Origin: Escherichia coli
GTDB taxonomy: Bacteria > Pseudomonadota > Gammaproteobacteria > Enterobacterales > Enterobacteriaceae
NCBI GenBank assembly: GCA_902499925.1
Contig: GCA_902499925.1_4130.1
Direction: 5' to 3' (one strand)
DNA: 64,000 nt
The notes beneath the pieces were generated by a model. It made no database searches. It was not told the origin of the DNA and saw only the letters and a list, made by a program, of their open reading frames with translations. Position numbers and translations under genes: made by a program. How positions within the stretch are numbered: the first letter of the stretch is position 1; each line of letters starts with the position of its first letter. Shown here piece after piece: positions 37,447 through 50,519 of this stretch.

Positions 37447-37921
37447 TCAAATAATCCACGCATTTATGGTATACATCTAAATCTAAAAAGAATCGTTGTT
37501 TGTATTTGTAATGATGAAGTAGTGCACCATAAAGTAATATAGCATTAAGTACTTTTGCATCATGAATACAAGACCCTTGGAAGTACATTTCTTCAGTCAT
37601 GAAAACTAACTCATTGTAAGGGATAAGCACTGAATCTCTAAATGTATCAATGTTAATCTTCAAATCGGACCCTTGGCAATATGAAATATATTCACCTCTG
37701 TAATGAAAGTCATTATCGTCAAAGTACTCAGCATATACTTGATTGTCCCTATTATTTTTAAAGGCAAGTCTTCCTTTGGTTGAACTGAATTGGTCATATT
37801 GGAACATTCCACCAAAAGGAATTCCACCGAAAGGTTGGGGACTTCTGAACTCCTTTGCAATGCGATGAATGTTAGATGCAAATTCTAAAACACCATCGTA
37901 ATCATATTCTGTTGTAATCAT
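37439..37921 (-). CDS. paralog family A member
   Basis: EEMYFQGSCI. Confidence 0.55.
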   Translation of the reverse strand: MITTEYDYDGVLEFASNIHRIAKEFRSPQPFGGIPFGGMFQYDQFSSTKGRLAFKNNRDNQVYAEYFDDNDFHYRGEYISYCQGSDLKINIDTFRDSVLIPYNELVFMTEEMYFQGSCIHDAKVLNAILLYGALLHHYKYKQRFFLDLDVYHKCVDYLNA

Positions 37922-38397
37922 AGACCATTTTTCTCCATGTACTCAATGATTTCATCTACGAAGTTTAAATCCATATAGAATCTATCATTTGCGTCATTGA
38001 GTTCATCTTTAAGTACTGTAAAAATTGTAGAACTAAACACGATTCTCTCATTGTACAAAGTACTGTACTGGAAGAATTCTTCTTCTGATCTAACATTAAA
38101 TGTGTCATATTCATCATCAACATCAGATCTAGGATGATAGTACTTAAAACTATCAGATGTATGGAAACAATATGAGATAAAATCCCCTGATGGTGCATCG
38201 TCAAGTACACGAATACCACAGAAATTCTCATCTGTAGTATGCAACAAATTGCTATTCATTGACAAATAATTTTTGTACGCATAAAGTGTGCATCGTGGGA
38301 GAATTATATTCTCTTTAACTGTTACAAGGAACTTATGAAGTTTAATGATATTTTGTGCGATTTTTTGTGCATTGCTAAATGATAGGTCTTTGGACAT
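37918..38397 (-). CDS. paralog family A member
   Basis: EEEFFQYSTLY. Confidence 0.55.
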   Translation of the reverse strand: MSKDLSFSNAQKIAQNIIKLHKFLVTVKENIILPRCTLYAYKNYLSMNSNLLHTTDENFCGIRVLDDAPSGDFISYCFHTSDSFKYYHPRSDVDDEYDTFNVRSEEEFFQYSTLYNERIVFSSTIFTVLKDELNDANDRFYMDLNFVDEIIEYMEKNGL

Positions 38398-38456
38398 TGT
38401 GATATAACCCTTTACAATTAATATAAAGAGATTATATCACAAAGATTTGGAGGGTG

Positions 38457-38990
38457 TCAAGAGTTCTCACGAAGTTCTACCATTTCTTTCCATACTAAAT
38501 GGTAATCTTCTAAGTCCAGATAGAAGTCTTCATTTAAGTGCTCATATAAGTACTTGTACATGAATAGTACACCTAAATTGTATTCAGTAGTAAGCAATGA
38601 TTGTTGGAAGTAGTTTTCTTCATTTAGTTCTATATCCATGAACTCAAATCTACCTAGACCTTTTAATGTACGTATCTCAACATGTGAAGTATCTGTTTTA
38701 CTGAAGCACATGAATCCACCTCTAAATTCGGGATCATATTCACATTCATACTGTCCACTGTTATTATAGAAATCTCTATTACCATCCTTATCTTTTGGCT
38801 TAACAACTGATACGTGAAGGTCGTCATCTTTGTACATTGTACGTTCTGGCGTTTTCACACATTTTAACTTATTTTCTTTAATGTACTTGATAATATCAAT
38901 TATATCTTGTGCAGTACTGATTGCTGCCTCGAACGTATCCAACTTAAGATGATTGTATAGAGTTCCCTCGTTCTTTATTTTATCTAACAT
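38457..38990 (-). CDS. paralog family A member
   Basis: EENYFQQSLL; track ORF 38457..39047 trimmed to internal Met. Confidence 0.5.
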   Translation of the reverse strand: MLDKIKNEGTLYNHLKLDTFEAAISTAQDIIDIIKYIKENKLKCVKTPERTMYKDDDLHVSVVKPKDKDGNRDFYNNSGQYECEYDPEFRGGFMCFSKTDTSHVEIRTLKGLGRFEFMDIELNEENYFQQSLLTTEYNLGVLFMYKYLYEHLNEDFYLDLEDYHLVWKEMVELRENS

Positions 38991-38997
38991 ACTAACC

Positions 38998-39336
38998 TCA
39001 TAGTTCATACATCTTTGATTTGAATTGCATTGGTCCACCAACTTCACATGGATAATTTTCCATAATACGATTCAAAAGTATCTGGTACTGTTGTAGTACT
39101 TCAATTTCCAAATGTATACTACTATCCAGTACTAATGACTCCTGAAACAATTCACCTCTATCTAAACCTGAAAAATCATTTATAGTTAGCATTGGCTTAT
39201 CATTTGTACGCAATGTAAATGATTCCTCATTTCGGATTAATGTACAGAATTCATTATGTTTTCTGTTGTAATCCATTTTAACCAATAATAACTTGGTGTG
39301 AGTTGCGTACATTATTTTTACTAATTCAGTCTTCAT
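38998..39336 (-). CDS. paralog family A member
   Basis: RGELFQESLVL. Confidence 0.55.
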   Translation of the reverse strand: MKTELVKIMYATHTKLLLVKMDYNRKHNEFCTLIRNEESFTLRTNDKPMLTINDFSGLDRGELFQESLVLDSSIHLEIEVLQQYQILLNRIMENYPCEVGGPMQFKSKMYEL

Positions 39337-39685
39337 AACGGAATAAAATTCTCCTGTACTGCTCCGGCTTAGTACTCAATCTCTTCACTGGATAATTGTC
39401 GAAGATCCTTTTCATTTCTTTCTGGATTAAACAAAGAAAATCAAAATCACAATAGTATTTTTTATCCCATACTAAACTTTCTTGAAACAACTCATCTTCT
39501 TGCATTAGCGTAGTATCAATTGTATCTTCACGTGTATTTGAGTACGCTTCATGACATTGAAAACCATCCTCGGATAATCCTAATGTATATGCCGCCATTT
39601 CAAACATATCATCATTTGTCTTTAACGAAAGTAAACAACAAACGTATTTTTTCGTTGTGTAGTAAGTAATGCTAATGGTATTCAT
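39326..39685 (-). CDS. paralog family A member
   Basis: EDELFQESLVWDKKY. Confidence 0.55.
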   Translation of the reverse strand: MNTISITYYTTKKYVCCLLSLKTNDDMFEMAAYTLGLSEDGFQCHEAYSNTREDTIDTTLMQEDELFQESLVWDKKYYCDFDFLCLIQKEMKRIFDNYPVKRLSTKPEQYRRILFRYED

Positions 39686-39690
39686 TGGAT

Positions 39691-40293
39691 TTAAACCTCA
39701 GTATAAAGCTTACAATAGCTTTCATCGAAATCAAAAATACTTCTCAAGAACTGACAAAGGTCAGTAAAAATATTTACATTTGCTATATACACATTATCAA
39801 ATTCTGTTCTTTCGAAGAATGTATGCATAGAATTTGTAATATATCTCATTGCAGATTCACGCTGCATTGTTATATCATTTGTGAACATCGCATCTTCATC
39901 AGTACTGACTAATTCAATATCAAATGATTGCATATATGGGATACTCTTCCCTAGTGCAAAGCTATCACCGTATGATGCTTCAACTGCATCTTTAGAATAC
40001 ACCAATTGATATAAGTCCGAAATAGGGTTATAAAAAGTACGACATATTGATGAACATAATTTATTATCTATCCAAAAGAAAACCCTATTTGTATTACCGT
40101 CAAATGCTATACGCAATCCATCACCATCTAACGATATATCACCATCGAGATTAAAAGAGAACTGAACTAATGCTTTTTCTAAGTCCATTCTTTTGTGATA
40201 AATGATTTCTTGCATATAGATAATATCATTTACTAATTTCTTAAAATACAAATGAACCTCAGTACTACAACATTTATTTGCATTTAATAACAT
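39691..40293 (-). CDS. hypothetical protein (possible degenerate family A)
   Basis: 200-aa ORF in array. Confidence 0.45.
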   Translation of the reverse strand: MLLNANKCCSTEVHLYFKKLVNDIIYMQEIIYHKRMDLEKALVQFSFNLDGDISLDGDGLRIAFDGNTNRVFFWIDNKLCSSICRTFYNPISDLYQLVYSKDAVEASYGDSFALGKSIPYMQSFDIELVSTDEDAMFTNDITMQRESAMRYITNSMHTFFERTEFDNVYIANVNIFTDLCQFLRSIFDFDESYCKLYTEV

Positions 40294-40880
40294 AGTAGAT
40301 CCTTATACATTGCATGTATTCTTACAATGTCTCTGTAATAACTCATATCTTCACGATTATCATTAAAAACAGTAACACTGAATACAGCAGTACTAATTGA
40401 ACTATCAACAATGTACTCTTTTAATTTATTATAAAGATATATGCACTTAGTAGATGTATCATCCCACATAAGACTATTTTGAAAGATGTTTTCTTCTGTG
40501 TTAGGATATAAGTACTGATCAATCTTGTACCCCAATGAACTATCACAGTTTTTATATACAGAAATAGATGGGACATTCATATTGCACATAATACTAATAA
40601 CATTATCATTGTATGTAGAAATTAAACTGGTACTGGATGCTACACTTTCATCATAATTCAGTACTGAAATTCTTGCATTATCTGTGCAGTACAGATGTTT
40701 CATTCCACCTCTCATAGCCATAGTAAGAAATTTATCAGTGAACCATATTCCTTTTGTTTTCAGTATAGTTTCATGCATAAGATAAGTTTCAATGAAGATT
40801 TTTACACGCTCAAATGCCAAGTCAAGTTCATTGTACATAACGGATATCCTTCTGTAAAGAATCAATATATTCTTTAACAA
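40284..40880 (-). CDS. paralog family A member
   Basis: EENIFQNSLMW. Confidence 0.55.
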   Translation of the reverse strand: MLKNILILYRRISVMYNELDLAFERVKIFIETYLMHETILKTKGIWFTDKFLTMAMRGGMKHLYCTDNARISVLNYDESVASSTSLISTYNDNVISIMCNMNVPSISVYKNCDSSLGYKIDQYLYPNTEENIFQNSLMWDDTSTKCIYLYNKLKEYIVDSSISTAVFSVTVFNDNREDMSYYRDIVRIHAMYKDLLCY

Positions 40881-41019
40881 CTTGTTCCTGATACTGTGTA
40901 CCCAAATACATCAGTACTTTTAATTCTTTGAATTCAGTACCATATGAGTCGATTTGCATCATTCTTTTAGAGTATATACCGAATAGTTTATCAATATCAT
41001 CTTGGTTTATTATTTTCAT
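40828..41019 (-). CDS. paralog family B member (dispersed copy)
   Basis: LGTQYQEQVVKEYIDSL. Confidence 0.5.
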   Translation of the reverse strand: MKIINQDDIDKLFGIYSKRMMQIDSYGTEFKELKVLMYLGTQYQEQVVKEYIDSLQKDIRYVQ

Positions 41020-41224
41020 AAACCCTCTTCTGGATTAGTTCCTGTAAGTGCTGAATATAACCCTTCATTGCAACATCCTGTTTGTTAGAGCCAACGAAGA
41101 ACAATAGCTTAAAGTCATGGTAATCCATTTTTGGTTTAGTAGTGAACCATATGTCCCACACTGCACTCACAGTTCTCATGTATTCAATTCGATTAAATGT
41201 TTTTGAATACTTCATCGAAATCAA
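40997..41224 (-). CDS. paralog family B-like (dispersed copy)
   Basis: VGSNKQDVAMKGYIQHL. Confidence 0.45.
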   Translation of the reverse strand: MISMKYSKTFNRIEYMRTVSAVWDIWFTTKPKMDYHDFKLLFFVGSNKQDVAMKGYIQHLQELIQKRVYENNKPR

Positions 41225-41726
41225 CCTTTAATAAATTGATATTTAAATTACTGTTAAATGCCATCTGTAATTCCATATAGAACTGAATAATAGCATAGTC
41301 AGGATCAGTACAAGATAGTTGAAAGCACTGTTCTTCAAATGAATTGTAATTGTACTTAGGAATATTAATAGTACGATATAACTCTGGATAACCCCATATC
41401 ATAGTGTACACGTCAATTTCAGTACACTTTTTCTTAAAAGTCATCTGTCGAATAGTTTCAGATCTGGATTCAAGGTATACAACATTCTTATGAACGGCTG
41501 AACCAATTGAAAGCAATGATGTATCAATGACGTGTTTCTCACGTATATCACACTTCTGGAATGCACCATTCCCTTGTAACAGTTTATGGAAATCGTACTT
41601 CTCACTAATAACTGTACTAGGATCAATTAATCCAGTACTGCATTTTTTCAGTACTGGTACGATAGTGCGAATCTTTTTTGATAAATCTTGTAATGCATCA
41701 TAATCATTAATGTTAATTTTTCTCAA
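41193..41726 (-). CDS. paralog family A member
   Basis: EEQCFQLSCT. Confidence 0.55.
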   Translation of the reverse strand: MRKININDYDALQDLSKKIRTIVPVLKKCSTGLIDPSTVISEKYDFHKLLQGNGAFQKCDIREKHVIDTSLLSIGSAVHKNVVYLESRSETIRQMTFKKKCTEIDVYTMIWGYPELYRTINIPKYNYNSFEEQCFQLSCTDPDYAIIQFYMELQMAFNSNLNINLLKVDFDEVFKNI

Positions 41727-42169
41727 ACGGATGCCTCTTCTATAGTAACGAAATCAACTAACCTATCAAGTTTTTCAGTGTCTAGATAAAATATATCCAG
41801 TACTGACTTCTGATATAGTACACTAAATGTACATAGATTGTCAAGTGTTCCTTCATTATAAACAGTACTTCCCTGGAAGTACCCTTCTTCTGTACTCAGA
41901 GATAAAATATCAGAAATTTTAAAAGATTCTTCATTCTCATGACGCTCTATCGTAACTTCATCATATTTTCTGTTCAATGAAATATAATCGTATGCTAATT
42001 CAATAGTACTACAGTTGTTGTTGCTAGTGTCAAATAAAGAATCAATTGTAATCTTCGTACCATTAGAAACTTCTCTGCGTTTATCATCTACGTATTCAGG
42101 ATTTTCTTTGAAGAACTTAACAACTTTTAGAATATCATTTGCTTTCTTGATTGCACTTTCGTAACTCAT
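41723..42169 (-). CDS. paralog family A member
   Basis: EEGYFQGSTVY. Confidence 0.55.
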   Translation of the reverse strand: MSYESAIKKANDILKVVKFFKENPEYVDDKRREVSNGTKITIDSLFDTSNNNCSTIELAYDYISLNRKYDEVTIERHENEESFKISDILSLSTEEGYFQGSTVYNEGTLDNLCTFSVLYQKSVLDIFYLDTEKLDRLVDFVTIEEASV

Positions 42170-42608
42170 TTTTTCTGGACTCCATATATATCACCTGATT
42201 TAGTTCATATACATAATCTAAATCAATGAATATAGAATTATTAAAGTTCTCTTTCAGAAATGCATTAAAAACTACTAAAGCTCTTAATGCACTATTTGGG
42301 TATATAGTACTGTACTGGAAGTAAGCATCTTCTGAATTTAAGAATAGTACTTCTTCTTCGGTGAATTCAAAATATTTTCCACTTTCATCGATTGAATAGA
42401 AAGTTCCAGAATCCCATACGAAGTACTTGAATTCCAAATCATAATCATGGGACTCGTACTTATATTCATTACCTAATCCTAGAATATCTGTACCAACACT
42501 TATAGTACTAATATATGCCCCTTTATGGTCTAAGTACTTTACATTATTTTGAAAGAACTTTACTATATTAACTAATTCTTCAGCGTGCTTAAGATCACTT
42601 TCGTACAT
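42135..42608 (-). CDS. paralog family A member
   Basis: EDAYFQYSTIY. Confidence 0.55.
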   Translation of the reverse strand: MYESDLKHAEELVNIVKFFQNNVKYLDHKGAYISTISVGTDILGLGNEYKYESHDYDLEFKYFVWDSGTFYSIDESGKYFEFTEEEVLFLNSEDAYFQYSTIYPNSALRALVVFNAFLKENFNNSIFIDLDYVYELNQVIYMESRKNELRKCNQESK

Positions 42609-42922
42609 TATATTTCAACCTCTATATATTCTTGGGTAATTAAGTAATCCCAGTAGTACTTCACTTGTTTTTGTATCTCAATTAAAGCATAAAAATTAAT
42701 TCTCTTATCCCATACAAGTGATTCCTGAAAAAGAAATGTTTCATGATCATCTCTGTAATCACATTCAAGGAAGTCAGGAATATAATCACAATCGTGAAGA
42801 TATTCAATCATTAAAGATTCATTACATCTCCTAACTGCAAGATGTTGGAAATTATCATGATCGAAGAAATACATTAGACTAATTGTTCCAGGAATGTACT
42901 GAATACTGTATAAGAATTTCAT
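42608..42922 (-). CDS. paralog family A member
   Basis: ETFLFQESLVWDKR. Confidence 0.55.
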   Translation of the reverse strand: MKFLYSIQYIPGTISLMYFFDHDNFQHLAVRRCNESLMIEYLHDCDYIPDFLECDYRDDHETFLFQESLVWDKRINFYALIEIQKQVKYYWDYLITQEYIEVEI

Positions 42923-43362
42923 CGTTTACCCTTATATACTTCACGTACATATTCATAATCCAAATAAAATCTTGTACTATCAATACTTTTAAAGTACCAC
43001 ATAATAACTAAAGTATCTAGTACTTCATCATCATACAAAGTACTATTCTGAAAGTAATACTCTTCACTATCCCACGGACCTTTCAGTACTTCAAAGTTCA
43101 ATTTTAAAGGTCTGCTGCGATTATAAAAACGGATTTCACCACCATAAGCATAACTGATAAATTCTGCATCTGGATTGTATTGTGAAAAATCTGCGGGACT
43201 TTTGGAATTCAACCCAAGAATAACTGTAGTTGTAGCAAAATCACTATCCTTGTAGTAGTTACCATTCTCGGCTTTGTATACTTCTTCGAACTTCCCAGCC
43301 TTAATGTCTTCAATATATGCCTGTAGTTCTTTTGCTTTATCAAGAGCACTTCGTAATGACAT
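42919..43362 (-). CDS. paralog family A member (EEYYFQ subfamily)
   Basis: WDSEEYYFQNSTLY ... VIMWYFKS. Confidence 0.6.
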   Translation of the reverse strand: MSLRSALDKAKELQAYIEDIKAGKFEEVYKAENGNYYKDSDFATTTVILGLNSKSPADFSQYNPDAEFISYAYGGEIRFYNRSRPLKLNFEVLKGPWDSEEYYFQNSTLYDDEVLDTLVIMWYFKSIDSTRFYLDYEYVREVYKGKR

Positions 43363-43828
43363 TATCTTCCCCTACAGTATTCTCTACGTATTCATAATCG
43401 AAATAGAAACTACCAGAACCAATACTTTTAAAGTACCACATAATTACAATAACATCTAATTCTTCTTCATTGTACACAGTACTGTTCTGGAAGTAATATT
43501 CTTCACTATCCCACGGACCTTCTAGTACTGAATACGGAATGATTGTGTCATCAACATCACTATCTGTGTTGTAGATGGTAATATCTTCATTACGGCAATA
43601 ACTAATGTACTGATTGTACATATGATATTCACAGTTATCACTATCACCCGTATCAGTGTGTAGTACTAACGTTTCTGCATGTATCTCTGACTCATCATAA
43701 TCGTCGCGGTCTTTTACAAAAAATTCAGTATCAGATGTTTTATACACCCCAGGAACTGAACCTTCTTGTACCATAATCATGTACTCATGAATCTTCTTTG
43801 CTTCTTTCAATGCACTTTCTAATGACAT
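43340..43828 (-). CDS. paralog family A member (EEYYFQ subfamily)
   Basis: WDSEEYYFQNSTVY ... VIMWYFKS. Confidence 0.6.
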   Translation of the reverse strand: MSLESALKEAKKIHEYMIMVQEGSVPGVYKTSDTEFFVKDRDDYDESEIHAETLVLHTDTGDSDNCEYHMYNQYISYCRNEDITIYNTDSDVDDTIIPYSVLEGPWDSEEYYFQNSTVYNEEELDVIVIMWYFKSIGSGSFYFDYEYVENTVGEDNVITKCS

Positions 43829-43830
43829 TA

Positions 43831-44271
43831 CTAATCCCCTGTACTTAAATATTCACATGCTCCCCAGTCAAGGAAGAAGGGTTCAAAATTCAATTCCTTA
43901 AAGTACCACAAAACAACCAAGGAATCAAGCATTTCTTGGTTAAAAATAAGACTCTGTTGGAAGTAATACTCTTCAGTACCCCACGGCCCATCAAGTACCC
44001 CGAAGTCAACAGGTGTATTTGATGTGTCAAAAGTAATCTTAGTACCTGGAATATATACAAAAAAACTAGTATATTGACTACATGAAGAGTACTGTATAGT
44101 ATTGTCTTTATCATGGCCCATAAGTAAAATATCATCAGAGTATGTCTTTATACCTGATAGATAATACTCATTACCAAATGCACTTACTTTATCACCATAG
44201 AAACCACTTTTTATGTTATCGTGGAAGTGATGTATTTTGTGTGCCAGTTTAAGTGCACTTGCTAAACTCAT
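43831..44271 (-). CDS. paralog family A member (EEYYFQ subfamily)
   Basis: WGTEEYYFQQSLIF ... VVLWYFKE. Confidence 0.6.
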   Translation of the reverse strand: MSLASALKLAHKIHHFHDNIKSGFYGDKVSAFGNEYYLSGIKTYSDDILLMGHDKDNTIQYSSCSQYTSFFVYIPGTKITFDTSNTPVDFGVLDGPWGTEEYYFQQSLIFNQEMLDSLVVLWYFKELNFEPFFLDWGACEYLSTGD

Positions 44272-44738
44272 ATATCCTCTTTTATAACTCGTAGTAGATC
44301 CAAGTCCAAATAGAAGCTAGGACAATCTGTATTATTAAAGTACCACAGAATGACAAGCTTGTCAAGTACATCTTCCTCGTAGATAGTATTCTGCTGGAAG
44401 TAGAACTCTTCACTTCCCCAGTCATTATCCAGTACTGAATACGGAAGATGTTTCTCTGCTGCACCAGTTATAATGTCAGTATCTTGTATTAAAATATCAG
44501 CATCACGACAGAAGTACATGTAATTATCTTCCAAATTAACATCACACCCATTGAGTGTTGTTTCAGAAGAATCTAAGTTTTCTTCATACATGTGAATGTA
44601 CTCACTACTGTCATCGTATATCATTCGACAATAAGCTTTACCTTCCTTGAATAGATACCCATTGAGTCGATTGAGTACTATTTCCTTTTTACATAAATCA
44701 ATTAACTTAGCAATTTCTAATGCTCTTTCAAAACTCAT
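44268..44738 (-). CDS. paralog family A member (EEYYFQ subfamily)
   Basis: WGSEEFYFQQNTIY ... VILWYFNN. Confidence 0.6.
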   Translation of the reverse strand: MSFERALEIAKLIDLCKKEIVLNRLNGYLFKEGKAYCRMIYDDSSEYIHMYEENLDSSETTLNGCDVNLEDNYMYFCRDADILIQDTDIITGAAEKHLPYSVLDNDWGSEEFYFQQNTIYEEDVLDKLVILWYFNNTDCPSFYLDLDLLRVIKEDI

Positions 44739-44739
44739 A

Positions 44740-44925
44740 TCAACTCCTGTGTTGTGTCTTGATATAATCTCGGTACACCATGTGAATATTAGCTATATAC
44801 AATTCACTAATATCATATGTACCGAAGTACATGTCATTCCTAATGCTGTTGTTATGTCTAATATCAATTACGAATCGTCGAAGTATTGTATTCATGAATG
44901 ATTCCATTTGTTCTTTTTTATTCAT
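44740..44925 (-). CDS. small hypothetical protein
   Basis: 61-aa ORF filling the gap between array members. Confidence 0.35.
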   Translation of the reverse strand: MNKKEQMESFMNTILRRFVIDIRHNNSIRNDMYFGTYDISELYIANIHMVYRDYIKTQHRS

Positions 44926-45266
44926 AGCTTAAAACGATACCTATCTTTGGAATCAGTCTCTATACAGATTCTTCTATATTCTTTCATCTTCTGTTGGAGT
45001 TCAATGACTTCCTCTAGTGTACACAAGTACTTCTTGTCAAATATTAATGACTCTTGAAATATTTCAGCCTCACCCTGTACTGTTGTATAGTCTTTCATAT
45101 TTTCTACAACTGTTCCTTTGGACTGATAATCAATGAAGCTAAAGTAAGCACCATTAAATTTAATGTACTGATCCATTTTGTGTTCATAATCACCTTTGTT
45201 AAGATTGCAATACACTTCCAGTGAAGTACTAATCTTAGGTATAAACATAGAAAAATCATATTCCAT
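44922..45266 (-). CDS. paralog family A member (CNLNKGD subfamily)
   Basis: AEIFQESLIFDKKYLCTLEEV; track ORF 44922..45338 trimmed to internal Met (MEYDF). Confidence 0.55.
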   Translation of the reverse strand: MEYDFSMFIPKISTSLEVYCNLNKGDYEHKMDQYIKFNGAYFSFIDYQSKGTVVENMKDYTTVQGEAEIFQESLIFDKKYLCTLEEVIELQQKMKEYRRICIETDSKDRYRFKL

Positions 45267-45267
45267 A

Positions 45268-45633
45268 TTACTCACCTGCATTGAAATAATAACTACTTGT
45301 TGTTGGTGTAGATGTATCAAAGGTGTTTTCTTTAACATATCTCTTCATTTCATTTTGTATAAAAATCATATCTTCTATTGTACATGAGTACTTATTCTTG
45401 TCAAACACCAAAGAAGCTTGAAATAGTTCAACATCATCCAGTACTGTATAATCTGTAATACTTTCAGAGTTATAGTCGAAGTCATCATGCAATACATCAA
45501 TGAAATTAAAACACAAATCCGAGTACTGAATATATAAACTCAACTCATGTTCCGAATCACCCTTGACAAGATTGCAGCACAAATCCCACCCCGTTCTGGA
45601 CTTACAAACGTACATCGAATAATCAAATGTCAT
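45268..45633 (-). CDS. paralog family A member (CNLNKGD subfamily)
   Basis: VELFQASLVFDKNKY. Confidence 0.6.
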   Translation of the reverse strand: MTFDYSMYVCKSRTGWDLCCNLVKGDSEHELSLYIQYSDLCFNFIDVLHDDFDYNSESITDYTVLDDVELFQASLVFDKNKYSCTIEDMIFIQNEMKRYVKENTFDTSTPTTSSYYFNAGE

Positions 45634-45986
45634 TCTGGTATTCCTATATTGAATTTGTATTCTTGATTAATACTGACATTGCCTTTATTCAAAGAGTCAT
45701 ACTCTTTCATTTCATTTTGTATTGCAATAACTTCTTCAAATGTACACAAGTACTTCTTATCAAATACTAATGACTCCTGAAATAGTTCAGCGGCATCCAT
45801 TACTGTATAATCCGGCATATCCTGATGCGGATACTGTAATGAATTATAATCAATGAATGTGAATTTACCCTGAGTGAAATGAATATACTCATTTGCACTG
45901 TGCATTAAATCACCTTTGTTTAAATTACAAAAGTACTGAAAACTGTTCTTAAAAGAATGTACTGATATTACAAAATCAAATTCCAT
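45630..45986 (-). CDS. paralog family A member (CNLNKGD subfamily)
   Basis: AELFQESLVFDKKYLCTFEEV. Confidence 0.6.
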   Translation of the reverse strand: MEFDFVISVHSFKNSFQYFCNLNKGDLMHSANEYIHFTQGKFTFIDYNSLQYPHQDMPDYTVMDAAELFQESLVFDKKYLCTFEEVIAIQNEMKEYDSLNKGNVSINQEYKFNIGIPE

Positions 45987-46354
45987 CAGTACTCAACCTC
46001 TAAATTAAAAGATTCAGGAAACTTAGTCATATAATCTTCAGGATAGTTCTGCATTGTTTTGATCATCTCTACCTGTGTAGCACGGACGTATTCAATTGGT
46101 GCTCCTGGTAAATTCCAGACAGTACTTTCCTGAAAGAATTCCTCTTCTGACAGTACTGTAAGATTTACAAAATCATTACGGTAATTTTTTGAATCATCAT
46201 ATGTGAAGATTTTAAAAGACCCATTTTCATATAGTACAAGAACAAAATGTGAGAATTTTTGTAATGCACCACCCATTTCCACGTCCGCATGATTCAGTGT
46301 ACAGATGACCTCTTTTTTCCTCATACCGAATTGAATTCTAATTTCTTTTTTCAT
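45986..46354 (-). CDS. paralog family A member
   Basis: EEEFFQESTVW. Confidence 0.55.
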   Translation of the reverse strand: MKKEIRIQFGMRKKEVICTLNHADVEMGGALQKFSHFVLVLYENGSFKIFTYDDSKNYRNDFVNLTVLSEEEFFQESTVWNLPGAPIEYVRATQVEMIKTMQNYPEDYMTKFPESFNLEVEY

Positions 46355-46357
46355 AAA

Positions 46358-46494
46358 ATCTCCTTCAGATTAGTACTGAATTTGTACAGAATATTAGAAC
46401 TGTATCCATAATCAAATCACCTTTGTTTAAATTACAAAAGTACTGAAAACTATTCTTGAAAGAATGTACTGATATTACAAAATCAAATTCCATC
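46358..46494 (-). pseudogene. truncated duplicate of the 5' end of family A gene 45630..45986
   Basis: ~85 nt near-identical to 45903-45986; encodes MEFDFVISVHSFKNSFQYFCNLNKGDL then diverges and stops after ~45 codons; coordinates approximate. Confidence 0.55.
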
Positions 46495-46966
46495 ACTCTT
46501 CCCCTAGATTGAAATAATTACTAAAATTAGTTTCACCAGTTTTACACCATTTATCGATACAATCCTTGTGAATAAATTTGATCCTACGCTGGATTTCAAC
46601 TATCTCTTCTAATGTACAGTTGTACTTCTTATCAAATACTAATGCCTCCTGAAACAGTGCAGCCTCATCCATTAATGTATAATCCAGCATATCGGTTGCT
46701 TTACCCCTAAACCCAGTACTAAAATCCATCAAATAAAATTGAGAATTTTCGAACTTTATAAGTTTGTCCCTTGCGTAGTTTAAATCACGCTTGCACAAAT
46801 TACAGCACGTAATAAACTCACCAGTGTACATCCATGTCCCTATATGAAAATCTTTATATTTCATTTGCATCTTCATTTCAATTGTAATCTTTACTGTAAT
46901 TAATAAGGTAAACTCCAATATAAGGAGCACGTTCGCGGCGGGGTATTTTTTTGTTTCAGGAAACAT
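46493..46966 (-). CDS. paralog family A member (CNLNKGD subfamily)
   Basis: AALFQEALVFDKKYNCTLEEIV; true start probably internal (MKYKDF, near 46864). Confidence 0.55.
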   Translation of the reverse strand: MFPETKKYPAANVLLILEFTLLITVKITIEMKMQMKYKDFHIGTWMYTGEFITCCNLCKRDLNYARDKLIKFENSQFYLMDFSTGFRGKATDMLDYTLMDEAALFQEALVFDKKYNCTLEEIVEIQRRIKFIHKDCIDKWCKTGETNFSNYFNLGEE

Positions 46967-47078
46967 GAACTGTACTCTGAAAACACATTTTAAAACTTTA
47001 TATTAAACATATACCTTAACATGTTTTTCAGCGAAAATTTTTTTGACCCCCCCAGCGGCCTGTGAAAACGAAACGTCT

Positions 47079-47324
47079 CTATTTATTCAGCCTAGAAAGC
47101 TTGATTTCTTCAATCCTTTTCATCGCACAAAGCCTTCGACTCGTCCTCTCGTACATATTCAATACTCGTTGTAATGCATTATCTGTATTATCTGTAACTG
47201 CAATCTGAACCAAATATGTATCCTTCAAAATCGAATCCATCATGAATTCAAAACCTTTCACACTAAAGCAATATACCACTTCCGGCTCTTCAAACGTAAT
47301 CATAATTCCAATCCCCTGTCCCAT
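47079..47324 (-). CDS. hypothetical protein
   Basis: 81-aa ORF without family core. Confidence 0.4.
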   Translation of the reverse strand: MGQGIGIMITFEEPEVVYCFSVKGFEFMMDSILKDTYLVQIAVTDNTDNALQRVLNMYERTSRRLCAMKRIEEIKLSRLNK

Positions 47325-47493
47325 CTAACCTTCTAAGATATCTTGCGTAAATTATTTCGAAATATCTGTGCAACGAAATTACGGATTGCTCATAATCATC
47401 ATTCCTGTACATTGTGCATGTAAGAAAATCATTTAAACCGTAATCTAAACTGCACTTGAACTTCTCCTTTGCAACATCTCTAAAATTATCCAT
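47290..47493 (-). CDS. hypothetical protein
   Basis: 67-aa ORF. Confidence 0.35.
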   Translation of the reverse strand: MDNFRDVAKEKFKCSLDYGLNDFLTCTMYRNDDYEQSVISLHRYFEIIYARYLRRLDGTGDWNYDYV

Positions 47494-47656
47494 AATATGT
47501 CCTCTGCACAGCGTAGGTGTACTGTGAACTCAGCACCGTTAATAGGTAATCTATGTTGTAAGCACGATTTCCTCGTTGACTAGCACGACTAGAATAAAGA
47601 ATATTATCCACATATGTATCGAACTGTTCTTCAAATAACTCTTTCATCAGCACCCT

Positions 47657-48283
47657 TTAGCACCCTTTAACAACTTTTGAAATGTAATCTTCTAATGCAC
47701 CAATGTTCTTTGTATTCGTTCGAACTAAAAGATAACTTAAATTCTCGAACTCCTGAACATAATGCTTAACAGCGTACATGCATCGTAATTCAAAATCTGT
47801 ATGAACCGTTTTGTACTGAAATAACATCTCTTCTGAAGCATCTAAAAGCTCTGTAGCTTGTTCTGTACTGAACTTAAAGGGATTCTGTACTCCTGAACTA
47901 AAACACTTTTGTACGTTCGTCTGGACACCCTGTGATAGATATAATCCTGTACTACCATCTTGTGTTGATATCGAATTGAAACCATTACTTGCAACCATTA
48001 AATCTGAACTCAATACAAATAATAATTTATCTTCCTTATGAATTAATAAATCTGACTTCAGGGATTTTATTCCTGTACTGGTTATATCACCTATACTAAG
48101 ATTGTCACTGAACTTCTCAGCGTTGTTCGCAATGCTCTGGACAAGATTTTTTAATCTCTTAATGGCACTTCTGTCTTTTTCTAATGTATCTAATAAACTC
48201 ATTGAACTCATTGTACTTTCCTTACATATTTGTACTGAACAAAACGGAACTTTGAATGCCATTAATCGACACTTCATGTACAT
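47657..48283 (-). CDS. paralog family A member
   Basis: EEMLFQYKTV. Confidence 0.5.
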   Translation of the reverse strand: MYMKCRLMAFKVPFCSVQICKESTMSSMSLLDTLEKDRSAIKRLKNLVQSIANNAEKFSDNLSIGDITSTGIKSLKSDLLIHKEDKLLFVLSSDLMVASNGFNSISTQDGSTGLYLSQGVQTNVQKCFSSGVQNPFKFSTEQATELLDASEEMLFQYKTVHTDFELRCMYAVKHYVQEFENLSYLLVRTNTKNIGALEDYISKVVKGC

Positions 48284-48566
48284 ATATATTTTGTCTGAAT
48301 ACCTGAAGCAATTGAACTAAACTCTGTTGCATAATAATATGCATCGCTAAATTATCAAAGGCCGTTTCGTATTGGAATCGTGCAGCATCATCTTCTATGA
48401 AATTCGGAACTTGGACTGGATTTTCAAAATTTGTCCTTGTACTGAACTGTACATCATTGTCCTGTACCTTAATACCATATGAATTATCTTTGTTATCAAC
48501 TACATCAAATTCAATTAAACTACCATCTTTACTGACGTTTACTATATAAACTGAAAATCTACTCAT
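48222..48566 (-). CDS. paralog family A-like (divergent)
   Basis: DAARFQYETAF. Confidence 0.45.
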   Translation of the reverse strand: MSRFSVYIVNVSKDGSLIEFDVVDNKDNSYGIKVQDNDVQFSTRTNFENPVQVPNFIEDDAARFQYETAFDNLAMHIIMQQSLVQLLQVFRQNIYVHEVSINGIQSSVLFSTNM

Positions 48567-49204
48567 AATCCTATTTCCTTTAAATCTTCCAAAAATGTTT
48601 CATAATCACTTAAGGAAAAAAAGATATCCGTATCGATGTTCGCATCTAATACATTATACAAATTCTGCATCTGTAACACATCAGGAGCATCAATCAATGA
48701 TTGCTGGAAATAGGCAGCTTCATCTTCCAAAATATCTCTGAATGTTCTCTCTCGTACTCTGTGGTGTACTGAATTGAATATTGATTTCTCATCCTTAAGC
48801 ATTGGTAGGTATCGAATGTACATGTGTTCTCTTAGCTCTGGACTGATGGAACCCCTGAACTGTAACACGTATTCGAAGCACATAGCAACATCCTGAAGGT
48901 AATTGGCACTGTAATTATTGCTGTAAACAATCTTATGACTTCTGAACTCATCATCATTTCTGAACCAATTGTCACCTACTTTGGTGTACTTATGACTAAG
49001 CAATCCACCCTCTAACGCTTTGATGATCTTCAAAATGTTGTGTGCAAATGCATATGATGTATTGTACTTGGCCTGATACATGTGTGCCTCATCTGCCTCA
49101 TTTGGCGTTAAAATATTCACTGAAATGATTATAACACAAAAGCACCACGATGTTAAGCACTCTGTTGTCAAAATCATCTTGTGATGCAGGATGCAAGGAC
49201 GCAT
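48563..49204 (-). CDS. paralog family A member
   Basis: EAAYFQQSLI. Confidence 0.55.
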   Translation of the reverse strand: MRPCILHHKMILTTECLTSWCFCVIIISVNILTPNEADEAHMYQAKYNTSYAFAHNILKIIKALEGGLLSHKYTKVGDNWFRNDDEFRSHKIVYSNNYSANYLQDVAMCFEYVLQFRGSISPELREHMYIRYLPMLKDEKSIFNSVHHRVRERTFRDILEDEAAYFQQSLIDAPDVLQMQNLYNVLDANIDTDIFFSLSDYETFLEDLKEIGL

Positions 49205-49293
49205 TGATGTTAAAATTCACTATATCATTGTGGAATTGGTATGTGAACAAATCAAACTTCGTATGCCTTTGTTTGATATCATCGGCGGTCATA

Positions 49294-49902
49294 TTATATA
49301 TTCAACCCTTTAACAATGGAAATAAATTCTTTGTATACATTTTCAGGTAAAGCTCTACTACCATAAAGAACACTAAATTCAGGTAACATATCCGAAATCT
49401 CTTTCGCTAAATTTATTTCATCCCTGAACATTTGCACAGGCATGATATCCTGTACCAATGATAACTGAAAGAAAAATGATTCAATATCTTCATGCACCTC
49501 TGAATTTAAATAAATCTCTTCTGGAAACTGGTCTGTACTGTAATAATAAAATACGTCAATTCTTTTTTCATTATTTTGTACAAGAGGTAAATTTCTTTCG
49601 TCTCTCTTATTAATATTTGTTTTCCATGACTCAATGTTATTCGGAACCCAAAACTCATAAGGTGTTTTCTCTCCTGAAATATTATCCAGCTTCAATCCAT
49701 AATATTCACCTTCGCCGTACTTCTGCTTCAAAACAATACCTGTACTACTGATGTTTACAATGTACGTATCAACAATCCCCTCTGCGGTAAAAGGAATATT
49801 TAACTCTGAACCTTCAGGGTACTTAGCATTGAATGCATCTAATGCTTTACTAAGCACTGGAATTGCACTTGTACTGTACTTCATTAATTGATCTATGTTC
49901 AT
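49294..49902 (-). CDS. paralog family A member
   Basis: ESFFFQLSLV. Confidence 0.55.
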   Translation of the reverse strand: MNIDQLMKYSTSAIPVLSKALDAFNAKYPEGSELNIPFTAEGIVDTYIVNISSTGIVLKQKYGEGEYYGLKLDNISGEKTPYEFWVPNNIESWKTNINKRDERNLPLVQNNEKRIDVFYYYSTDQFPEEIYLNSEVHEDIESFFFQLSLVQDIMPVQMFRDEINLAKEISDMLPEFSVLYGSRALPENVYKEFISIVKGLNI

Positions 49903-50483
49903 TTTAATGCCCCTGTAATCATACTGAAATTTGAACGATACATATCGTACACTGTACTTTCTTTCTTGTGCACAATGAAATCATAAAGATCGACGAATGC
50001 AGGAATAATAATCTTGAATGATTTATTCTTGTACGTCCCAAACTCAACGGTGCTCAATTTTGCAACGAGCATAGCAACAAAGATTTCTTCTGGACTATGC
50101 AATGTACTGTACTGAAAATAATCCTCTGCACTTATTTCACCCATTGCACTAATATCTTGTACTTGTAATGAAATTTTAAGATAATAATAAGAAAAATCAT
50201 TCTCTGATTTGTTTTGTATTTTGTATTGGTCTATGGGTACATCTCTCATGAACCATAAACGGTCCTGACCATAAAAAGGAATGATTGAATTTGGGGAACC
50301 CAAAAAAACTTCTTCTCTATCAATATCCTTTAACTCAATTTGCATACTGGATGAATTGGCAATAATTAATTCATTAAAAATGTAATGAACCTTGTGTACC
50401 ATCTCTTGTACTGAATTGAAATCATCTGGTATTTTAAAATTTTCCATAGGTATCTCCTTAAAAATGATTACACATTGTACCAT
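49899..50483 (-). CDS. paralog family A member
   Basis: AEDYFQYSTLH. Confidence 0.55.
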   Translation of the reverse strand: MVQCVIIFKEIPMENFKIPDDFNSVQEMVHKVHYIFNELIIANSSSMQIELKDIDREEVFLGSPNSIIPFYGQDRLWFMRDVPIDQYKIQNKSENDFSYYYLKISLQVQDISAMGEISAEDYFQYSTLHSPEEIFVAMLVAKLSTVEFGTYKNKSFKIIIPAFVDLYDFIVHKKESTVYDMYRSNFSMITGALK

Positions 50484-50519
50484 GCATTTGTACTGGTGTC
50501 AAACAAAAAAGCCCATATC

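Follow-up and report, generated by a model that had tools for sequence, protein, structure and literature searches.

An old illegitimate insertion as the probable source of a truncated gene start in a paralog array of an Asteriusvirus jumbo phage

The window analyzed here, a stretch of 64,000 nucleotides, comes from an Asteriusvirus, a jumbo coliphage of the 121Q/PBECO4 type. A megablast search with positions 44900-47100 matched 36 records, every one of them a jumbo phage of the genus Asteriusvirus with E. coli or Salmonella as host (121Q, PBECO4, and their relatives), and the closest match was Turkey3 (94.7%). In this region, every gene lies on the minus strand; the 5' to 3' order is gene P, a short ORF, gene122, and gene A, and consecutive genes of the array are joined by a TGATG stop/start overlap. 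Gene P (46493-46870) is an upstream paralog of family A; its start was placed at 46870 on the basis of 378-nt homologs, and the open frame reaches 46966. Gene122 (45986-46354) is an accessory gene of 122 codons, and gene A (45630-45986) is intact with 118 codons. The PHROGs database assigns A and P to phrog_15629, gene122 to phrog_13866, and neighboring genes to phrog_9317, all of which are families of unknown function. Pfam gave nothing above threshold for family A or for gene122. The short ORF (46365-46493) consists of 42 codons and a stop codon. Its homologous start is the ATG at 46493, which overlaps the TGA stop of gene P as TGATG (the program-made ORF list begins at a GTG at 46496), and its own TGA stop at 46367-46365 lies inside the GAAGGAG Shine-Dalgarno sequence of gene122, 10 nt ahead of the gene122 ATG.

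The short ORF begins within one of two copies of an 85-nt direct repeat, both on the minus strand. The downstream copy (DR-R, 45904-45988) is the genuine start of the intact gene A, which was the donor of the duplicated segment, and the upstream copy (DR-L, 46411-46495) comprises the TGATG stop/start overlap and codons 1-27 of a family-A gene. The copies are spaced 507 nt apart and are identical at 82 of the 85 positions (96%), with mismatches at repeat positions 38, 44, and 83, and both encode MEFDFVISVHSFKNSFQYFCNLNKGDL. A first-pass annotation of this DNA had described about 85 nt as nearly identical to the 5' end of gene A and as encoding the same first ~27 residues, and both descriptions hold. 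A search of the window for the 85-mer with at most three mismatches found exactly these two sites, whereas none were expected from 100 shuffles; a chance match, short or otherwise, is thus ruled out as the source of the repeat. The annotation had also suggested looking for further partial copies across the array. Among the other direct-repeat families of at least 45 nt in the 64-kb window, none exceeded 83% identity (the remaining paralog repeats fell between 60 and 83%), and the 85-nt pair is the sole outlier.

The likeness between the two copies ends sharply past codon 27, after which the upstream copy continues for 15 codons to the TGA. The annotation had correctly noted an early stop after the divergence, but the sequence past codon 27 is not random. 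In phage A4, an intact 192-codon gene, A4_364, is located directly upstream of gene122, with no A gene nearby. The last 47 residues of A4_364 (DLIMDVDSAATYSSNVLCKEFQNSKILELLYIADCNILYKFCTHLKEIL) can be aligned to the residues that come after the 27 A-type residues in 121Q gp366, the corresponding short ORF. The 121Q tail and A4_364 are identical at 124 of 142 nucleotides without gaps, and tblastn using A4_364 as the query detected the 121Q tail at E = 3e-13. These alignments show that the truncated start is a chimera: its first 27 codons are those of gene A, and what follows derives from the 3' end of another gene. In the window, 56 nt (46355-46410) are left of the last 142 nt of the A4_364-like gene, and they contain two deletion junctions and the GAAGGAG ribosome-binding site of gene122; the codons of the short ORF beyond the 27th are a frameshifted remnant of this 3' end. 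A simpler assignment of the short ORF as a truncated A paralog, with the 56-nt tail taken as the 3' end of A on account of the shared TACAAATTCA, was dropped in the face of the A4/121Q alignment. No other full-length copy of A4_364 was found by tblastn among 50,697 phage records. The adjacency of the 364 gene and gene122 also occurs on Logan contig L021, and the intact 364 gene was found only there and in A4. The best relative of A4_364 in the window (39733-40290) is only 25.6% identical, which rules out an origin of the tail elsewhere in this genome.

Comparison with the 36 related records, which the annotation had proposed as a check for presence or absence, was informative. Searching them with the remnant and gene122 (45986-46495) showed that 12 records, representing 11 phages, carry the whole block at the same place and keep the order P, small ORF, gene122, and A. 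In 23 of the 36 records, there is only a single copy of the 85-nt sequence, and the cassette (the tail and gene122) is absent. Phage A4 possesses gene122 and 41 nt upstream of it without the 85-nt copy. In the ten cassette-free genomes that were inspected (including fEgEco12, Ecwhy_1, PBECO4, WPEC5, EC.P1, ph0011, UE-S1, SD-2_S15, and vB_Ec-M-J), P is directly followed by A with the TGATG overlap. Three pairs of phages, Turkey3/fEgEco12, G17/SD-2_S15, and BF17/PBECO4, show almost no differences over 3.5-5 kb around the site apart from one 529-nt block with its ends in the repeat. The flanks of the block-bearing phages are 79-90% identical to those of the window, whereas gene122 of the window is 99.5% identical to that of slurp01 and 98.6% identical to that of 121Q, the flanks of which share only 79-90% identity with the window. 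Searches for further contexts of gene122 yielded only 121Q and one distant locus in IMG/VR, nothing in the JGI metagenomes, and a single A4-like Logan contig in a collection of 5.8 billion proteins.

Both ends of the inserted segment display short microhomologies. The left join, located after codon 27 of A, has an 8-nt microhomology, GATTTGAT. With the join marked by a slash, the sequences are ...AAAGGTGATTTGAT/GCACAG in A (fEgEco12 allele), ...CAACAGGATTTGAT/TATGGATG in A4_364, and ...AAAGGTGATTTGAT/TATGGATA in the chimera. The right join has a 7-nt microhomology, TGATGGA, at the stop/start overlap ahead of A. The corresponding sequences are ...GAGTACTGATGGA/TTTAGT in A4 (gene122 stop and A4_366 start), ...GAGTACTGATGGA/ATTTGA in the window (gene122 stop and A start), and ...GAAGAGTGATGGA/ATTTGA at the P/A boundary of the cassette-free phages. 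We consider it likely that the truncated start is the left junction scar of one old illegitimate insertion, which was followed by repeated gain and loss of the cassette through homologous recombination in the repeat. The junction sequences suggest that the ancestor had a P-A array as seen today in Ecwhy_1, fEgEco12, and PBECO4, and that the last 142 nt of a 364-like gene together with the following 122-codon gene were spliced into it from an A4-like array. The path would exit the P-A array after codon 27 of A at GATTTGAT and re-enter it at TGATGGA before A. Re-entry would thus have occurred 85 nt before the point of exit, which would have left the first 85 nt of A duplicated. Template switching or two illegitimate crossovers may have been the route, and either would give the same product. 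Both parent arrangements, the P-A arrays and the 364-gene122 arrays, have been sequenced in present-day phages. Two lasting effects of the remnant may be presumed: it would deliver ribosomes coming from P to the gene122 Shine-Dalgarno sequence, and it would form, together with the true A start, an 85-bp direct repeat around a cassette of ~0.5 kb. Homologous recombination in this repeat, mainly in its 31-33-nt invariant 3' part, could then delete the cassette or move it between co-infecting relatives.

The same junction might instead be the scar of a deletion. The ancestral order would have been P, A', other genes, 364, gene122, and A, and a microhomology deletion would have removed everything between codon 27 of A' and the final 142 nt of the 364-like gene, leaving the repeat as a relic of two A paralogs. 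The GATTTGAT junction is equally compatible with such a simple deletion, small microhomology deletions are frequent at the site (the 63-nt and 19-nt deletions described below), and a whole gene was lost in the same array of vB_Ec-M-J. However, this ancestral order is absent from the 36 records, IMG/VR, the JGI metagenomes, and the 5.8-billion-protein collection, whereas both parents of the insertion exist today. Moreover, gene122 in A4 is followed by A4_366 with TGATGGA at the boundary, which gives the junction between gene122 and A the appearance of a second join. We regard a deletion as an unlikely origin.

The chimeric ORF has evidently been shortened stepwise. In 121Q, the remnant (gp366) has 74 codons with the full 142-nt tail. 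An in-frame deletion of 63 nt gave a 53-codon remnant in at least seven relatives (it was seen in slurp01, G17, BF17, CRJP21, and Turkey3), and the partial Sharanji record has the same shortened tail. This deletion is flanked by the short direct repeats TCTAATGTTCTGT and TGTAATATTCTGT (TAATRTTCTGT), and its junction in the window is located at ~46386-46396. A further deletion of 19 nt occurred between two ATACAG repeats (window ~46400-46405), ATGGATACAG[ATACAGAGGCTGTATACAG]TTC. The short 510-nt span that marks it was found in none of the 36 records, only in the window. The remnant stops early at 42 codons in the window because the 19-nt loss, on top of the older 63-nt deletion, shifts the frame.

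Little of the family-A domain is left in the remnant. The window remnant has just 27 residues in common with family A. Against the phrog_15629 profile of ~120 residues, which includes the LFQES helix, A and P match positions 1-120 (E = 1e-54 and 7e-50), whereas 121Q gp366 matches positions 1-39 only (E = 2.7e-6) and the remnant does not qualify as a full-length family-A protein. The AlphaFold model of A (pLDDT 84.5) comprises five strands and two helices, and residues 1-27 would form strands 1 and 2, that is, the first hairpin, and a loop. With its deletions, with only the first hairpin of the predicted fold, and with the match of gp366 confined to profile positions 1-39, the ORF is best read as a decaying pseudogene remnant.

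It is conceivable that the short ORF is functional, either as a micro-protein with the N-terminal hairpin of family A or as a translated leader coupling P to gene122. The ORF has the translation start of A, overlapping the P stop, and is open in every relative inspected, where it ends on the gene122 start codon as ATGA. The 63-nt deletion kept the frame, and even the frameshifted version in the window still stops inside the gene122 Shine-Dalgarno sequence. On the other hand, the ORF occurs in three lengths, having lost 21 codons and then its C-terminus to a frameshift. It would retain two of the five strands of the predicted domain, and it is absent in 23 of the 36 related records. The copy in 121Q and CRJP21 has seven amino-acid changes in the 27 shared residues, one of them within a 31-nt block in which genuine A genes do not vary, and gene122 has its own strong GAAGGAG site. 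A function of this kind thus appears quite improbable. A degree of selection to keep the ORF, perhaps because it couples translation to gene122, is nonetheless conceivable given the open frame in the relatives.

The divergence of the two copies varies from genome to genome. In addition to the 82 identical positions of 85 in the window, the copies share 82 positions in slurp01, 80 in Turkey3, 73 in CRJP21, and 71 in 121Q. The upstream allele of the 121Q/CRJP21 type looks like the oldest, drifted version. It is absent from every record as a functional A allele (the best match, in UE-S1, is 89%), and its interpretation as a relic of a sampled A allele was accordingly dropped. DR-L of the window is the single-copy allele of ph0011 except at position 83, and DR-R is the single-copy allele of Ecwhy_1, which differs from that of WPEC5 only at the synonymous position 83. 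A profile of identity in 50-nt bins revealed that the window is a three-part mosaic that switches at the repeats. The 3' half of P together with DR-L is ph0011-like (49-50/50 per bin), and the tail and gene122 are slurp01-like (50/50 in all bins but one). The third part, consisting of DR-R, A, and the next gene, is WPEC5/fEgEco12-like (48-50/50 in all bins but one), with slurp01 reaching 38-48/50 there. Because DR-L and DR-R match the single-copy A alleles of different relatives and the window is a mosaic, the 82/85 identity in the window is best explained by later homologous exchange with the A alleles of other phages, not by the youth of the duplication.

If the start of A had recently been copied in this genome, by tandem or segmental duplication or by unequal exchange within family A, with the copy running into random sequence, this would suit two copies 507 nt apart that are far more alike than the other paralog repeats of the window, but it is highly improbable given that 11 other phages share the arrangement with diverged flanks, that their common left junction and common tail exclude independent events, that the copies have diverged to 71/85 in 121Q and 73/85 in CRJP21, that the homology of the sequence past codon 27 is to the 3' end of A4_364 and to nothing at the A locus, so that no head-to-tail unit exists, and that the repeat alleles point to exchange rather than copying in situ. 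The annotation had called the duplication recent, and this part of its proposal is not borne out. Its description of a truncated duplicate of an A start left by illegitimate recombination stands, but recombination between family-A paralogs is not supported, in that the tail is that of A4_364 and came in with gene122.

The preferred reading, an old insertion followed by homologous gain and loss, is consistent with the alleles in the phage pairs. Between Turkey3 and fEgEco12, identity is 100% at the end of P, in the remainder of A, and in the gene downstream. Gene122 of Turkey3 is 100% identical to those of G17, CRJP21, and Sharanji, and its DR-R matches theirs at 84 of 85 positions, whereas its flanks are only 80-90% identical to those of G17. 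At position 83, DR-R of Turkey3 has the fEgEco12-type base (G). Such a patch would be expected if a G17-like phage had donated the cassette through two crossovers, each within a repeat, which favors gain or replacement. For G17/SD-2_S15 and BF17/PBECO4, loss by a crossover between the two repeats and gain by a double crossover predict an identical allele pattern. An attempt to separate gain from loss by the hybrid repeat alleles alone was abandoned; both predict an S allele with an L-like 5' part.

Part of the repeat is unusually conserved. In an alignment of 16 distinct A alleles, in which 156 of the 357 columns are variable, the longest invariant run is 31 nt, TCAGTACTTTTGTAATTTAAACAAAGGTGAT, at gene positions 48-78 (46416-46446 in DR-L and 45909-45939 in DR-R). 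When the variable columns were placed at random 20,000 times, a run of 31 nt never appeared (P < 5e-5). The block is invariant at all synonymous sites in the 16 alleles, whose CNLxKGD motif is specified by different codons in paralogs. It is also the longest perfect homology between the repeats, and every inferred crossover lies at or beyond it. The invariance may arise from a nucleotide-level constraint, a recombination hotspot, or homogenization.

The closest described system is the shuffling mediated by PeSLs in T4-type phages. In the hyperplastic regions of these phages, modules are shuffled through PeSL repeats, which consist of a strong sigma-70-like early promoter and a stem-loop terminator, and modules have been proposed to be deleted, inserted, and passed horizontally between phages by recombination between the repeats (Arbiol et al. 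2010, PMC2839356; Comeau et al. 2014, PMC4122927). The present locus resembles that system in that small non-essential ORFs of unknown function lie between short direct repeats, and nearly identical phages differ by an exact repeat-bounded ORFan unit, here the 529-nt block in the three pairs. The locus differs in that the repeat is a coding segment, composed of the translation start and 27 codons of a paralog gene, and in that there is one repeat pair at this site instead of a dispersed repeat family. A consensus scan of 44800-47400 for the PeSL elements found no terminator-like site, and promoter-like sites were no more frequent than in shuffles. The promoter-like matches overlapping the repeats were weak (9/12) and lay on the opposite strand only; no promoter or terminator was found on the gene strand in the remnant. 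One may speculate that the 5' coding segment of family A, especially the 31-nt block, is a dedicated portable recombination site, a coding-sequence analog of the PeSL, which exchanges accessory genes such as gene122, possibly excised as circles of ~0.5 kb, between co-infecting Asteriusvirus phages. We think this doubtful; if it were true, the paralog arrays would represent an organized cassette-exchange system and not passive mosaic debris.

In the Hendrix/Hatfull model, illegitimate recombination creates the mosaic junctions and moron insertions of tailed phages, and a classical moron carries its own promoter and terminator. Like a moron, the cassette places a foreign gene between P and A, which are neighbors in relatives; like mosaic junctions, it has joins with a few bases of microhomology near gene boundaries and later spread via homologous flanks. 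In contrast to a classical moron, the cassette has neither promoter nor terminator, the insertion was accompanied by duplication of 85 nt of the recipient and produced a two-parent chimeric ORF with a translation start, and the donor and the recipient are paralogous arrays of one phage genus. A transposable element does not match the locus, in which the duplication is 85 nt (compared with 2-14 bp) and the cassette ends lack terminal inverted repeats. Neither does a homing endonuclease or intron: gene122 has no Pfam match, and no Rfam match to an intron or any other non-coding RNA was found at E < 0.6 in 44500-47500.

Other changes in the array were observed in relatives. On a 28-kb Logan contig, P0008 is a P::A hybrid, the N-terminal two thirds of which are of the P type and the C-terminus of the A type. 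It apparently arose from an unequal homologous crossover in the stretch coding for LFQESLVFDKKY (window 45699-45806 versus 46571-46678), which would be a second, independent route of array contraction. In UE-S1 (L015 1527-2255, minus strand), P and A are fused in frame into a two-domain ORF of 242 residues (...NHFNLGERVMEFDFLIS...) because the TGATG stop/start register is lost. The vB_Ec-M-J array (L022) has no homolog of the window gene at 45268-45633 (the 369 homolog). A 61-codon ORF and a 138-codon family-A-like gene (window 44740-45270) are present in the window, fEgEco12, Turkey3, WPEC5, and ph0011; in 121Q, slurp01, G17, and Ecwhy_1, an unrelated 495-nt gene (gp370) occupies this position, and the alignment is lost at ~45270.

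The genomic accordions of poxviruses are gene arrays that expand and contract by unequal recombination. The change of paralog copy number via repeats, as in the P0008 hybrid, the UE-S1 fusion, and the loss of the 369 homolog in vB_Ec-M-J, is reminiscent of them. At the present site, no gene was amplified; a different family member was imported with only a gene start duplicated, and no link to a selection pressure is apparent. The first-pass annotation had seen in the truncated copy an explanation of how the array expands and shuffles, and the scar does document reshuffling but not expansion. The locus is a well-resolved instance of classical phage mosaicism, in which a rare illegitimate join is followed by homologous spread, and involves no new mechanism.

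Small paralogous genes are arranged in long arrays in the jumbo phages of the Rak2/121Q group, and the diversification of these arrays is so far undescribed; our literature search found no paper describing these arrays or this junction. Here, each step can be read from the sequence, including the parents, the two joins, the stepwise decay across lineages, and the repeat-bounded polymorphism, and the locus offers a testable model for the flux of accessory genes in coliphages that are therapeutic candidates. It also carries a warning for annotation: ORFs of 42-74 codons at this position, such as 121Q gp366, are probably junction remnants and not genes.

Several minor observations concern the array and the window at large. 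On the minus strand of the window at 38457-40293, four genes form a distant paralogous copy (25-37% identity) of the A4_364/gene122-like/A4_366/A4_367 block with its order kept. This copy suggests an old duplication of a unit in which the 364 gene and gene122 were already adjacent. Nearly all of the approximately two dozen small genes at ~37900-50500 on the minus strand, which belong to several PHROG families, share the motif E-x-x-[LYF]-F-Q-x-S, with examples such as EEGYFQGS, EENYFQQS, and AELFQES (e.g., in the genes at 41723-42169, 38457-39047, and 45630-45986). The motif resembles a 3C/TEV-like protease site. The family alignment shows no variation at F69 and Q70, and both are placed within a confident helix in the AlphaFold model, so that a structural role is more probable than one in cleavage. 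In the 64-kb window, GCGC does not occur (23.8 expected from a second-order Markov model), and GATC occurs 102 times, which is 0.44 of the expectation (234). The depletion of both tetranucleotides may suggest restriction avoidance. GTAC is enriched 1.6-fold (585 versus 364 expected) and is densest at 40-56 kb, in the paralog arrays.
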